Positions 17,247 to 25,555 of a stretch of DNA of 64,000 nucleotides are shown here, one piece after another. The notes beneath the pieces are model-generated. The model saw only the letters and a list, made by a program, of their open reading frames with translations, was not told where the DNA came from and made no database searches. The DNA is from an uncultured Lachnospiraceae bacterium (GTDB lineage: Bacteria > Bacillota > Clostridia > Lachnospirales > Lachnospiraceae). The stretch covers positions 18,011-82,010 of the forward strand of contig CATOPL010000013.1 in the NCBI GenBank assembly GCA_951802115.1. Reading direction: 5' to 3'. The first letter of the stretch is position 1. Each line of letters begins with the position of its first letter. A program made the position numbers and the translations under genes.

Positions 17247-17569
17247 TCTGCTGCCAGGTCCTCAAACAAATCTGTAAGGATATCGCCTTTGGACTGATAT
17301 TCGCAGGCATTATTCGGAATGCCTGCTGCCGCCGTCGGCCACAGCGCTGCCGTATGATCCACATAATATGTGTCAAAACCGGCTTCTTTCAGCTGTTCCA
17401 TCGTCATATTTCTGGTAAGCTGATAGACGATTGCGCAGATCATTTCCAGATGTGCCAGTTCCTCCGTACCAATATCCGTCAGCGTCGCCTGACATTCTTT
17501 ATACGGCATGGTATAACGCTGGGCCAGGTAACGCATACTGGCGCTGAGCTCCCCATCGGGACCACCGAA
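17247..17569 (-). CDS. cotJC: cotJC segment 2 (internal ~102 codons between the two elements)
   Basis: (FGGPD)GELSASMRYLAQRYTMPYKECQATLTDIGTEELAHLEMICAIVYQL...DILTDLFEDLAA(E); carries the Mn-catalase GEL and EELAH motifs. Confidence 0.95.
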
Positions 17570-17595
17570 TTGCCCGAAGATATGACACCGGAAAC

Positions 17596-17808
17596 TCACA
17601 TCTCTTTCTGAGAGATAAGTTTCACAAAATCGTTCCATTCCTCCGGATGGGCAGAAAAATACTCACACAGACTTTGACTGATCTTCCCGCACATCCGATC
17701 CTGCTTCTCTTTTCTCTTCTGAACTGCCAGCTTTCCTAATTCTGTCTCTGTCCCATCCATCTCCTGTATCAACGACGGCATTATTTCCAGCTCTTTTTTA
17801 TATGCCAT
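17596..17808 (-). CDS. 70-aa protein divergent from the element 1 recombinase; candidate directionality factor
   Basis: MAYKKELEIMPSLIQEMDGTETELGKLAVQKRKEKQDRMCGKISQSLCEYFSAHPEEWNDFVKLISQKEM*, RBS GGGGA, ends 26 nt from the att core. Confidence 0.6.
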   Translation of the reverse strand: MAYKKELEIMPSLIQEMDGTETELGKLAVQKRKEKQDRMCGKISQSLCEYFSAHPEEWNDFVKLISQKEM

Positions 17809-17922
17809 ACATAGATCCCCTGTTTTTATTTCTATCCTATGCTTATAACTGCCTCTGTACGCACGAATAAGGTTCCTATATGCACGAATATAATAAACAA
17901 AGATCAAAAAGAGTACCCAATT

Positions 17923-19329
17923 ATGAAAACAGCCGCAGCCTATATTCGCGTCTCAACCGAAGATCAAACAGAGTATTCCCCCGACAGCCAGCGCAGGAAA
18001 ATACTGGAATATGCTGATACACACCACATCCTTCTTCCTGAACGCTTTATTTTTCAGGACGAAGGCATCAGCGGACGCTCTGCCCAGAAACGTCCGGCTT
18101 TTATGACGATGATTGGCATGGCGAAGCAAACGCCCCGTCCTTTTGACCTCATCCTCGTCTGGAAATTCTCCCGCTTTGCCCGTAACCGCCAGGACAGTAT
18201 CCTATACAAATCCATGCTCCGTAAAGAATGCCAGGTCAGCGTCGTCTCTGTCACAGAGCAGCTGTCGGATGACCCTACCGCCATTTTAATCGAAGCGCTG
18301 TTAGAAGCGATGGACGAATACTATTCCATCAACCTGGCACAGGAAGTAAAACGCGGCATAAATGAAAAGTTTTCCCGGGGTGGCGTTGTATCTATCCCGC
18401 CCTTTGGCTACCGTATGGGAACGGAACACTTTGAGCCGGACCCGAATCAGGCGCCTTTTATTTCCATGATATTCCAGGATTATCTGGCCGGAGCTTCCTG
18501 CAGACAGATCGCCGTCAAACTGAACAAATTTGGAATACATACAGCCCGCGGCAACTCTTTTGAAAGCCGGTCCATCGAGTATATTCTGACCAATCCGACA
18601 TATCTTGGAAAACTGCGCCGGTCTTTAAACGGGAAAGATTCTCCTATGCAGCTTGTCAGCGGACAGCATCCTGCCCTCATAGATCAGGAAACTTACCATC
18701 TGGTTCAGCAGCAGATAACCAAAAGCAAAAAGAACCACCATGCCCACACCAGCACTTCCCCTGTCAGTTACATGCTCCAGGGACTGGTTCGATGCAGCTA
18801 TTGCGGAAGCACCCTTACCACTGCAGAAAAAGGCCAGTCGCTTCAGTGTTATCGTTATGCCAAAGGACTGTGCAGCAAAAGCCACCATGTCCGATTAAAC
18901 ATACTGAATCATGCAGTCCTGACGGCACTGAAGACAGATCTGCATACAGGTACCCTTGACATCCACATCCGTAAACCGCTTACTCCCGACCCCCTGCAAA
19001 CATTTTCCTGTCTGCTGAAACAGGAATCCCGGAGACTGGAACGCGTAAAAACGGCATATGAATCCGGCATCGACACACTGGAAGAATACCAAAAAAACAA
19101 AAAAACTATTTTGAAACGAATTCAGGATTTAAAAAAAGAAATAAGACAGCAAGAGCAGAACAACACTCAAACTGTGATGCACATTCAGATTTCATTGGAA
19201 TATGCTGTGTCTCAACTCATGCAAAAAGAAATAACCGAATCATCAAAAAATGCATTACTAAAAGCCTGTATCTCTCATATTACCTTTTATCGTTCTGAAA
19301 ACGCCATACAGCTTCACTATCATACATAA
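17923..19329 (+). CDS. Large serine recombinase (SpoIVCA-like) of element 1
   Basis: MKTAAAYIRVSTEDQ (catalytic Ser), DEGISG, VWKFSRFARN, PPFGY, GQHPALIDQETY, CSYCG...C...C. Start placed at ATG 17923. Confidence 0.94.
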   Translation: MKTAAAYIRVSTEDQTEYSPDSQRRKILEYADTHHILLPERFIFQDEGISGRSAQKRPAFMTMIGMAKQTPRPFDLILVWKFSRFARNRQDSILYKSMLRKECQVSVVSVTEQLSDDPTAILIEALLEAMDEYYSINLAQEVKRGINEKFSRGGVVSIPPFGYRMGTEHFEPDPNQAPFISMIFQDYLAGASCRQIAVKLNKFGIHTARGNSFESRSIEYILTNPTYLGKLRRSLNGKDSPMQLVSGQHPALIDQETYHLVQQQITKSKKNHHAHTSTSPVSYMLQGLVRCSYCGSTLTTAEKGQSLQCYRYAKGLCSKSHHVRLNILNHAVLTALKTDLHTGTLDIHIRKPLTPDPLQTFSCLLKQESRRLERVKTAYESGIDTLEEYQKNKKTILKRIQDLKKEIRQQEQNNTQTVMHIQISLEYAVSQLMQKEITESSKNALLKACISHITFYRSENAIQLHYHT

Positions 19330-19452
19330 CAATATCATATCTGCAGATTGCGTTTTCACAATCAGAATATATTTCCATTTCCCAGATCCGGCCGCTGGCA
19401 GGTAAAACCATCAGCCATACCATTGTTCCTGACTGTATAAAAGTCAGAAAAC

Positions 19453-23971: not shown

Positions 23972-25365
23972 ATATTTCCCGCCTTTGACTGACGCGCCGC
24001 ATGAGATTTGTCCAGAATATCACAGATATCATTCAGCTCGCTGCAGCTTGTGGTAATAATGATGACCGAATCTCCCAGCTCCAGGCAATCCTGACCCTTG
24101 GGAATGATAACCTTTCCCCGACGATGTATGGCGCATACAAGCAGACCCGGCTTCAGCTCCAGCGTCTGCAGCGGAATATCAGTCACTTCTCCTTTTTCAC
24201 GGATAATAAATTCCAGCGCTTCTGCTCTTCCGTCCACCAGACGATACAGCGTCTCTACATTACTTCCAATCGAATTCTGCATTGCGCGCACATACTGCAG
24301 AATACTTTCCGCTGTGATATGCTTTGGATGAATCACGCTTCCAATATCCAGAGTTGAAATGATACTGTCATAAGTATTGCTGCTGACCTTCGTAATTTTC
24401 TTGGCTCTGCTCATCTTCTTCGCATACAGCGACAACATGACATTTTCTTCATCCATATTCGTCAGTGCCACAAAACCTTCTGTGTCAGCCAGGCCTTCTT
24501 CTGCCAGAAGCTCCTGGTCCGTCCCGTCGCCATGTATAATCATGGCGCCTGGAATCAGTTCACAGAGTTTCTCGCAATACGCCTTATCCTTCTCAATGAT
24601 CTTGACTTTAATTCCCATTTCCAGAAGCCGTTTGGCCAGATAAAACGCAAGCTTCCCGCCGCCAATGATCATGGTGTTTTTAACCTGATTGGTCTGTATT
24701 CCGATCAGACGGAAGAAACGGCTGGCATTCATCGGCGAAGCCACGATCGAAATGGTATCATTTTTTTTCAGTTCAAATTCTCCGTCAGGAATCAGCACCT
24801 CATCTTCCCGCTCTACTACACAGATCAGCACTTCACAGCGGGACAGTTCTGCGATATTCCTGATTTTCTGACCACACAGTCGATTGTCCTCTTCCATACG
24901 GAACCGAAGCAGCTCAATCCTTCCGCGGGCAAACGTATCAATATCTATCGCTTTGGGAAAGCGAAGAAGTCTTGCCATCTCCGTGGCTGCCGCCCACTCC
25001 GGATTGATAACAAGAGACAATCCAAGCTCTCCTTTGATGTGACGAATCTCCTGATGATAAATCGGATTCCTGACTCTGGCAATCGTCTGACAATCTCCGG
25101 CCTTTTTTGCGATCAGACAGCAGAGCAGATTCACTTCATCCGCATTTGTCACCGCAATCAGGAGGTCCGCCTTCTCAATCCCCGCCTCTTTCTGAATATT
25201 GTAGCTCGCACCATTTCCAACGATCCCTATGACGTCAGCCGCATTGGCCACATGCTGTACCACATCCGATTTCTCGTCAATCACCGTGATATCATGACCT
25301 TCCCGGCTCAGCTGCTCGGCAAGTGAACCTCCTACTTTTCCGCAGCCTGCAATAATGATGTTCAT
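23968..25365 (-). CDS. trkA: Trk potassium uptake NAD-binding regulatory subunit
   Basis: MNIIIAGCGKVG and a second IIGGGKL Rossmann motif; two RCK_N/RCK_C pairs; ATGA overlap with trkH. Confidence 0.95.
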   Translation of the reverse strand: MNIIIAGCGKVGGSLAEQLSREGHDITVIDEKSDVVQHVANAADVIGIVGNGASYNIQKEAGIEKADLLIAVTNADEVNLLCCLIAKKAGDCQTIARVRNPIYHQEIRHIKGELGLSLVINPEWAAATEMARLLRFPKAIDIDTFARGRIELLRFRMEEDNRLCGQKIRNIAELSRCEVLICVVEREDEVLIPDGEFELKKNDTISIVASPMNASRFFRLIGIQTNQVKNTMIIGGGKLAFYLAKRLLEMGIKVKIIEKDKAYCEKLCELIPGAMIIHGDGTDQELLAEEGLADTEGFVALTNMDEENVMLSLYAKKMSRAKKITKVSSNTYDSIISTLDIGSVIHPKHITAESILQYVRAMQNSIGSNVETLYRLVDGRAEALEFIIREKGEVTDIPLQTLELKPGLLVCAIHRRGKVIIPKGQDCLELGDSVIIITTSCSELNDICDILDKSHAARQSKAGNI

Positions 25366-25404
25366 CTCCTGGTTTCATCCTCCTGCTGTAATGAATATGT
25401 ATTT

Positions 25405-25433
25405 AATATAGCACCCCCTGTCTAAAAGTTCAA
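25405..25433 (-). promoter_or_regulatory. Candidate sigma-A promoter for trkAH, just inside element 1
   Basis: TTGAAC-N17-TATATT, about 25 bp from the att core. Confidence 0.5.
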
Positions 25434-25456
25434 TATTCTAATCCTATCTTTTTACA

Positions 25457-25555
25457 ATCGGGACCACCGAACTGAGTAATGATAAGTTTTGCCAGGGCCG
25501 GGTCCGGATTTTTAATATTTACCGGATATTCCAGACGTTTTTCATAGTTCCACAT
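25457..25555 (-). CDS. cotJC: cotJC segment 1 (N-terminal 33 aa); reads on into element 1 as CKKIGLEY* (stop 25430)
   Basis: MWNYEKRLEYPVNIKNPDPALAKLIITQFGGPD, the typical CotJC N-terminus; ATG directly follows the cotJB TGA; RBS GGAGG. Confidence 0.95.

Follow-up and report, generated by a model that had tools for sequence, protein, structure and literature searches.

What are a potassium transporter and a fermentation enzyme doing between the pieces of a broken sporulation gene? The question is raised by a stretch of 64,000 nucleotides (the window) from a mouse-gut Lachnospiraceae bacterium in which the gene cotJC lies in three pieces. Two of these pieces are separated by Element 1 (17555-25471), which occupies 7.9 kb inside cotJC between perfect 15-bp direct repeats 7902 bp apart and carries a large serine recombinase gene (rec1) together with trkA, trkH, and adhE. 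We consider it likely that Element 1 is an intervening element of the same kind as skin and gin, which interrupt the sporulation genes sigK and gerE, and that it has engulfed native neighbor genes, is inherited vertically, and excises itself in the mother cell.

The target of Element 1 is a sporulation gene: cotJC (Mn_catalase/CotJC family) stands behind cotJA and cotJB, and cotJ is a mother-cell operon in Bacillus subtilis. The order on the minus strand is a gene for a 289-amino-acid (aa) membrane protein, cotJA (25825-26028), cotJB (25556-25834, PF12652), and codons 1-33 of cotJC; SpoIVA is also encoded in the genome. The pieces of cotJC and the attachment (att) sites of Element 1 are the following.

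25457..25555, minus strand: cotJC 5′ piece, codons 1-33, directly after cotJB and with an att core at its end; translation MWNYEKRLEYPVNIKNPDPALAKLIITQFGGPD
17247..17569, minus strand: middle piece of cotJC (Mn_catalase family), codons about 28-136, adjoining Element 2 on its far side
13284..13520, minus strand: cotJC 3′ piece, codons 137-211
17555..17569: left att core, copy 1 of the 15-bp repeat ATCGGGACCACCGAA
25457..25471: right att core, copy 2 of the 15-bp repeat ATCGGGACCACCGAA
25434..25456, minus strand: element-side att arm (P′ arm, TGTAAAAAGATAGGAT...), which mirrors the arm at the other end of the element

When Element 1 and Element 2 (a second intervening element, described below) are deleted in silico at their repeats, the result is a 211-aa CotJC. 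Over its two joints, FGGPDGE and LAAEQKAR, this protein aligns without gaps to CotJC from a congener (G026) and from another genus (G117) in which the gene is uninterrupted. The joints are exactly in frame, so that precise excision of Element 1 restores the cotJC reading frame in silico. The short direct repeats with symmetric but imperfect inverted arms are as in other sporulation-gene intervening elements. The arms form a dyad, TATCTTnnnnCAAT-core-ATTGnnnnAAGATA, which is recognizable even in Ruminococcus loci, and the arm TGTAAAAAGATAGGAT beside trkA is common to two of the three major clades of the genus and to the Ruminococcus loci.

Both the recombinase and the broken gene are under constraint. 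The ratio of nonsynonymous to synonymous substitution rates (dN/dS) of rec1 is about 0.14 (0.09-0.18 across ten congeneric species pairs), indicating purifying selection, and that of the middle cotJC piece is 0.01-0.11, at saturated dS. The middle piece lacks both a promoter and a start codon of its own and runs into Element 2 at its end. Purifying selection on rec1 and on promoterless pieces of cotJC argues that excision must still occur and that these pieces are joined and translated at some stage.

The remaining features of Element 1 are listed from left to right.

17596..17808, minus strand: 70-aa open reading frame (ORF; length from the likely ATG), candidate recombination directionality factor; phrog_26314, E = 3e-7
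17809..17922: divergent control region, 114 bp between the 70-aa ORF and rec1, with a CATAGGAT box at 17834-17841 (minus strand) and TATTCGTGC repeats
17923..19329, plus strand: rec1, large serine recombinase, 468 aa from MKTAAAYIRVST; Pfam Resolvase, Recombinase, and Zn_ribbon_recom
19440..19492: GC-rich, terminator-like inverted repeat separating the converging genes rec1 and adhE
19515..22133, minus strand: adhE, bifunctional, 872 aa; NF010378, 1354 bits (cut-off 951)
22401..22446: three tandem Rex-like palindromes, GTTAA-N4-TTAAC, upstream of adhE
22460..22494, minus strand: terminator-like hairpin (inverted repeat) and T-run after trkH
22523..23971, minus strand: trkH, 482 aa, overlapping trkA by 4 nt
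23968..25365, minus strand: trkA, 465 aa; NCBIfam TrkA, 453 bits (cut-off 338)
25405..25433, minus strand: sigma-70-like trkA promoter, TTGAAC-17-TG-TATATT, abutting the att arm

A preliminary description of the window, made from its sequence alone, had characterized Element 1 as housekeeping cargo without phage or conjugation genes, and this characterization stands. The ORF space is fully taken up by rec1, the 70-aa ORF, adhE, trkH, and trkA. By inspection of the ORFs and by domain and PHROGs searches, we found no phage structural, lysis, replication, or repressor genes in Element 1; the only PHROGs matches are to an "integrase" family (rec1) and to one family of unknown function (the small ORF). 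Likewise, there is no relaxase, coupling protein, type IV secretion ORF, oriT, or transposition gene among its ORFs. With the ORF space accounted for and with this PHROGs outcome, Element 1 is not a prophage and holds no conjugation genes. The GC content is 0.459, compared with 0.460 for the genome, and the tetranucleotide distance lies at the 23rd percentile of genome windows.

The recombinase matches the integrase family phrog_95 (E = 7e-102), contains the YIRVST catalytic motif, and has its start at 17923, at a distance of 354 nt from the left core, which ends at 17569. With a score of 106 bits against the XisF model NF041201, below the cut-off of 375, rec1 does not belong to the XisF family. 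The 70-aa ORF is kept beside rec1 across the genus (ELxxLPS...YFxxHPEEWE) and recurs next to rec1 homologs in Ruminococcus loci. Its match, phrog_26314, is a phage protein family of unknown function; by analogy with known systems, the ORF is a candidate directionality factor that may aid rec1. A CATA box, the kind of −10 element found in mother-cell sigma-E/sigma-K promoters of B. subtilis, lies about 25-35 nt before the ATG of this ORF in most of 15 aligned congeners, amid otherwise diverged sequence; it is absent or ambiguous in G014, G025, and G004. We take the box as a lead, not as proof, that the 70-aa ORF may have a mother-cell promoter. The motif TATTCGTGC occurs twice, 21 nt apart, at 17850-17900 between the 70-aa ORF and rec1, and related repeats (CTTATTC...) are seen at the same place in several congeners; this repeat may be a regulator binding site.

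The −35 of the trkA promoter begins 24 nt inside the repeat, in agreement with the preliminary placement about 25 bp inside the att site, and the promoter motif is conserved in congeners, including G026 with its intact cotJC. The proposed Rex boxes before adhE also hold up: each of the three tandem palindromes has 3 mismatches to TTGTTAANNNNTTAACAA, they make up three of the 6 matches in the window, and two or three of them are kept in six close congeners. As had been claimed, adhE, trkH, and trkA share their strand with cotJA, cotJB, and cotJC, and in the sequence of this window there is no terminator-like hairpin between the cotJC 5′ piece and trkA, so that cotJ transcription could run into trkAH before excision. 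In genomes with an intact cotJC, a hairpin is present between cotJC and trkA. The draft genome (3.3 Mb in 37 contigs, 94% complete) has its only bifunctional adhE, trkA, and trkH in Element 1, as judged by tblastn. Kup and KdpA are absent from it.

Our sample of the genus comprises 34 species, this genome included, and its layouts were read from 20-kb neighborhoods and from genus-wide searches with adhE, CotJC, and TrkA. A rec1 homolog is found in 30 of the 33 congeneric genomes searched, at 55-67% identity. The arrangement cotJA-cotJB-cotJC(1-33), then trkA-trkH(-adhE) and the recombinase, then cotJC(25-...) is present in 31 of the 34 species. Most commonly the recombinase lies beside the 3′-side piece of cotJC, as in this window. 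In a second layout it lies between trkH and adhE (G017, G023, and G030), and in a third it stands beside the 5′ piece, and adhE is followed by additional genes for a GntR regulator and an ATP-binding cassette (ABC) transporter (G007, G011, and G013). The element of G002 contains 8 kb of additional ordinary genes (GntR regulator, MtnA-like isomerase, and BMP-type ABC transporter). Wherever a close adhE (≥88% identical) occurs in the genus, it is inside the element.

One clade (G010, G024, G027, and G016) has a recombinase of 277-287 aa that lacks the zinc-ribbon and coiled-coil part. The 277-aa form is seen at loci L040 (9994-10854), L159 (3829-4680), and L160 (7857-8717), and G016 looks similar. 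We considered whether the recombinase of G010, G024, and G027 is a pseudogene and rejected this, because the stops lie past the truncation and the 277-aa ORF is intact and under purifying selection (dN/dS about 0.1). The clade is therefore not usable as an example of a dead element. Its att arm beside trkA is only 13 nt long, and within the clade the cotJC 3′ piece has a dN/dS of 0.02. Either the short recombinase still works, or the 3′ piece may be expressed from an in-frame ATG ∼10 codons upstream of the joint.

The same clades appear in the tree of concatenated TrkA and TrkH, in the recombinase tree, and in the tree of AlaS, an unlinked host marker that is on other contigs in most genomes. 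Branches of the recombinase tree are about five times longer than those of the host clades, which explains why recombinase identity is flat at ∼60% even between close species. Turnover of the recombinase by horizontal replacement was considered and rejected, since its tree recovers the host clades and its dN/dS is low; on these sequence data, the recombinase is fast-evolving yet vertically inherited. Presence in 31 of the 34 species, congruent trees, and native composition are not what a horizontally mobile island would show. With the purifying selection on the recombinase and on the split cotJC, they bear out the earlier proposal of a "domesticated" element.

Capture of the cargo from the chromosome, an origin that the preliminary description had suggested looking for in synteny and gene trees, is what the comparison points to, with the surroundings of cotJC as the apparent source. 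In G117, cotJA-cotJB-cotJC (intact)-trkA-trkH lie on one strand. For G069, which the cargo tree places as sister to the genus, the evidence is partial: the contig starts inside cotJC, and the 3′ end of that gene is followed by trkA-trkH. The cotJ and trkAH operons of G096 are divergent neighbors, with cotJC intact. G026, a congener, has cotJA-cotJB-cotJC (intact, 208 aa)-trkA-trkH-adhE followed by a sucrose phosphotransferase system (PTS) operon and has no recombinase (L157, G026:C49, 7505-15554). Congruent trees, native composition, and adjacency of cotJC and trkAH together indicate that the cargo consists of engulfed native neighbors and was not imported. The cargo thus looks like the ancestral downstream neighborhood of cotJC, now lying between att sites. 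Engulfment may have proceeded by local rearrangement. In the simplest formal scheme, the stretch with the cassette, the 3′ piece of cotJC, and trkAH-adhE would have been duplicated in tandem, and each part would then have lost one of its two copies. Every intermediate of duplication and loss would still be able to rebuild cotJC through attL x attR recombination, and duplication plus one germ-line excision could reverse the split state.

We infer excision and its timing from the analogy with skin, SPbeta, and gin, according to which a small accessory protein should control both direction and timing. In this model rec1, probably with the 70-aa protein, would cut Element 1 out as a circle and rejoin cotJC in frame, an event most likely restricted to the mother cell as it differentiates terminally. 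The 7.9-kb circle, which has no replication functions, would then carry trkAH and adhE. Loss of the cassette from the germ line would cost the cell trkAH and adhE, and this would stabilize the recombinase cassette; such stabilization is a plausible consequence of the arrangement rather than a demonstrated selected function.

Several observations weigh against the reading of Element 1 as a vertically inherited, self-excising element with engulfed neighbors. Adjacency of cotJ and trkAH is found in only three of the 29 outgroup genera sampled, and the AlaS tree and the cargo tree both give G026 a nested position within the genus. For this reason we did not adopt the intact cotJC of G026 as the ancestral state; its nested position means that the split state reverted once or that neighbors were engulfed several times. 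We recognized no att-arm remnant upstream of the G026 trkA promoter, and the three positions of the recombinase relative to the cargo are compatible with both reversal and repeated engulfment. The arm TGTAAAAAGATAGGAT, being common to two of the three major clades, tentatively favors one early engulfment with reversal. The excised form was also not seen: no attB or attP junction was found in the assembled contigs of eight public runs (Logan), all of which show the integrated form. These contigs represent at least three strain backgrounds, and depth is similar inside and outside Element 1; one run, X2, appears to derive from a cultured strain with both elements. In addition, the sigma-E/sigma-K reading of the control region has a single 4-base box behind it.

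Further adverse points concern the cargo. On another contig (C19:32000-34062), the genome encodes KtrB (454 aa), a distant TrkH-family paralog detected by profile search, paired with KtrA (215 aa). Element 1 therefore does not hold the sole K+ uptake system, and we rejected that role for TrkAH despite the absence of Kup and KdpA. The preliminary question of whether these are the only copies in the genome thus has a divided answer: they are the sole bifunctional adhE and the sole TrkAH orthologs, but not the sole means of K+ uptake. Twelve of the 34 species lack a close adhE; nine of these have none at all, and three have only aldehyde-dehydrogenase-domain paralogs that are 43%-46% identical. 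Two of the 12 keep a 34-codon adhE remnant beside a truncated recombinase, which indicates that adhE was lost in those species; judging from these genomes, adhE is dispensable in the genus. The presence of KtrAB and of congeners without adhE weakens the notion that the cassette could not be lost because of its cargo. The genomes of two congeners, G005 and G008, which are 92%-95% complete, lack trkA, adhE, and rec1, and G008 also lacks cotJC; these absences may be real losses of the locus or may reflect unbinned contigs.

In the Logan data, some contigs from mouse-gut metagenomes end or start within ∼25 nt of the att core: X5 (17538-17561) on the left and X7 (25430-25456) on the right. Such ends could be a graph branch of the excised form or a mixture of strains. 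No alternative path was recovered, and we do not count them as evidence.

The absence of an excised form among the public contigs is what would be expected if the cassette were a fossil, with no excision, a dead cotJC, and trkAH and adhE as ordinary genes between the remains; the clade with recombinases cut to about 277-287 aa could be read in the same way. Against this, purifying selection acts on rec1 and on the promoterless pieces of cotJC, in the truncated-recombinase clade as well, the joints are in frame, and the symmetric att arms are conserved, so we regard a fossil as highly unlikely. We give still less credence to the import of foreign adhE and trkAH by a mobile element that then inserted into cotJC, even though the recombinase is of the phage-integrase type (phrog_95) and its clade is widespread. 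Besides the congruence of cargo and host-marker trees, the native composition, and the presence of trkAH beside intact cotJC in outgroups, the closest outside relatives of TrkA and TrkH are ordinary Lachnospiraceae genes: TrkA is single-copy in 105 of the 121 genera sampled from the family, and the best outgroup matches are 57%-63% identical. Neither is there a second, displaced chromosomal copy. Trees, synteny, and composition largely refute imported cargo, and with it the recent foreign acquisition beside other chromosomal copies that the preliminary description had named as the contrary case.

The alternative with most in its favor is that the placement is adaptive, with mother-cell excision altering the expression of trkAH and adhE, either by uncoupling them from cotJ read-through or by silencing or losing K+ uptake and ethanol fermentation on a non-replicating circle late in sporulation, which would amount to a programmed somatic removal of metabolic genes. 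The orientation of the cargo and the lack of a terminator before trkA, at a place where intact-cotJC genomes have a hairpin, agree with this, as does a trkA promoter kept immediately beside the att arm in all clades; other cotJC elements, too, hold fermentation or central genes (pyruvate formate-lyase with its activase, AsnA). Yet transcription would still be possible from circles, cargo varies widely among lineages and adhE has been lost repeatedly, and neutral engulfment accounts for the same facts. We therefore consider adaptive placement unlikely, although less so than import or a fossil, and retain an engulfed native neighborhood that is excised in the mother cell as the likely reading.

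Among described elements, gin in gerE of Bacillus cereus ATCC 10987 is a non-prophage element with a serine recombinase and a small accessory factor, and its precise excision was shown experimentally (PMC5595907). Element 1 resembles it in being a non-prophage in a small mother-cell sporulation gene, with a serine recombinase and a candidate accessory factor. It differs in its 5.6 kb of native housekeeping genes, its genus-wide conservation, and its cotJC target, and in that excision is here read from the sequence; gin reportedly carries essentially only recombination genes. The skin element in sigK is excised in the mother cell by a large serine recombinase (SpoIVCA in B. subtilis and CD1231 in Clostridioides difficile), and the timing in C. 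difficile is set by CD1234, a small directionality factor with mother-cell expression (PMC5025042). Short direct repeats and a large serine recombinase are shared with Element 1, but skin is a degenerate prophage in a regulatory gene, whereas Element 1 has no phage genes, lies in a coat-protein gene, and carries a transporter and a fermentation enzyme that belong to its host cell. For SPbeta in spsM, the serine integrase SprA and the directionality factor SprB rebuild a spore-envelope gene during sporulation (PMC4191935, PMC5499854). SPbeta is an active phage that can leave its host and infect, in contrast to Element 1, which lacks any transfer functions and has diverged in step with its host.

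The closest analogy for how Element 1 would work is offered by the heterocyst elements of Anabaena/Nostoc in fdxN (with the serine recombinase XisF), nifD, and hupL, which are vertically inherited, contain miscellaneous non-phage genes, and are excised only in a terminal cell. They belong to another phylum and another developmental program, and rec1 falls outside the XisF family. Interruption of cotJC itself has been noted before: it receives a one-line mention for Laceyella sacchari (bioRxiv 10.1101/2022.02.25.481979), and cotJC stands on a list of interrupted sporulation genes attributed to Abe 2013 in bioRxiv 10.1101/2021.11.22.469490. The target gene is the same, but these brief mentions concern skin-like, phage, or transposon insertions in Bacilli. 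Our full-text literature search returned no description of a clostridial cotJC-specific recombinase clade and none of a cassette with its host's own housekeeping genes as a vertically inherited, engulfed neighborhood. The kind of element is thus already known, both as cotJC interruption and as non-prophage gin, and the recombinase clade and the native engulfed cargo are apparently undescribed in the literature searched.

A profile built from the recombinases of the genus retrieved 80 loci from a collection of species-representative genomes, and in 72 of them the recombinase adjoins a fragment of cotJC with its break at these FGGPD codons. Of the eight loci that do not fit, four lie on contigs shorter than 5 kb. 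The loci belong to Lachnospiraceae, Ruminococcus, Oscillospiraceae, and unclassified Clostridia, with similar att arms across families, and the elements range in size from 2.1 kb (recombinase only, in Hominifimenecus) to >10 kb. We screened the cargo of 14 fully bounded cotJC elements (28 proteins), which includes pyruvate formate-lyase and its activase, RecD2/UvrD-type helicases, AsnA, PTS proteins and a transketolase, an AI-2E transporter, and BspA-like proteins. No phage families are among the 25 most frequent Pfam families of this cargo. Elements with cellular cargo in other families (Ruminococcus, Oscillospiraceae, and other Clostridia) are L042, L047, L049, L059, L071, L081, L094, and L112. 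We put forward only tentatively, as something that may well not hold, the broader idea that cotJC cassettes in gut Clostridia grow by taking in the neighbors of their att site through duplication and loss around it. Core genes would then become "hostages" that make germ-line loss of the cassette difficult and that are cut out in each sporulating mother cell, a bacterial programmed somatic elimination of housekeeping genes in many lineages with differing cargo.

The second interruption of cotJC in this window lies at codon 136 and is of separate interest.

13513..17254, minus strand: Element 2, the second intervening element, with the 8-bp flanking repeat TCTGCTGC
13544-15109: rec2, the large serine recombinase of Element 2, only about 25% identical to rec1
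15405-17162: lone LPXTG pilin gene of Element 2

In G001, G021, G029, and a Ruminococcaceae metagenome-assembled genome (L067), homologs of rec2 (64%-68%) adjoin or lie close to pieces of cotJC that are likewise broken at codon 136. Genus-wide, cotJC is broken at up to four sites (codons about 28, 65, 136, and 180), and in G010 four pieces are spread over 50 kb (G010:C2:546567-597100). Six congeners have a second, intact cotJC paralog (about 67%-73% identical) elsewhere in the genome; this genome (G000) has none.

Intervening elements of sporulation genes are usually read as decayed prophages that are tolerated or used as timers, and Element 1 looks different. If our reading is true, it shows one way in which a site-specific recombination module can settle into a genome for good, and core metabolic genes would be lost as a matter of routine from the mother-cell chromosome whenever this gut bacterium sporulates. 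The split cotJC genes and "pseudogenes" in hundreds of gut Clostridia genomes are probably functional, and nature offers a large collection of large serine recombinases that are specific for cotJC and whose att sites can be read.

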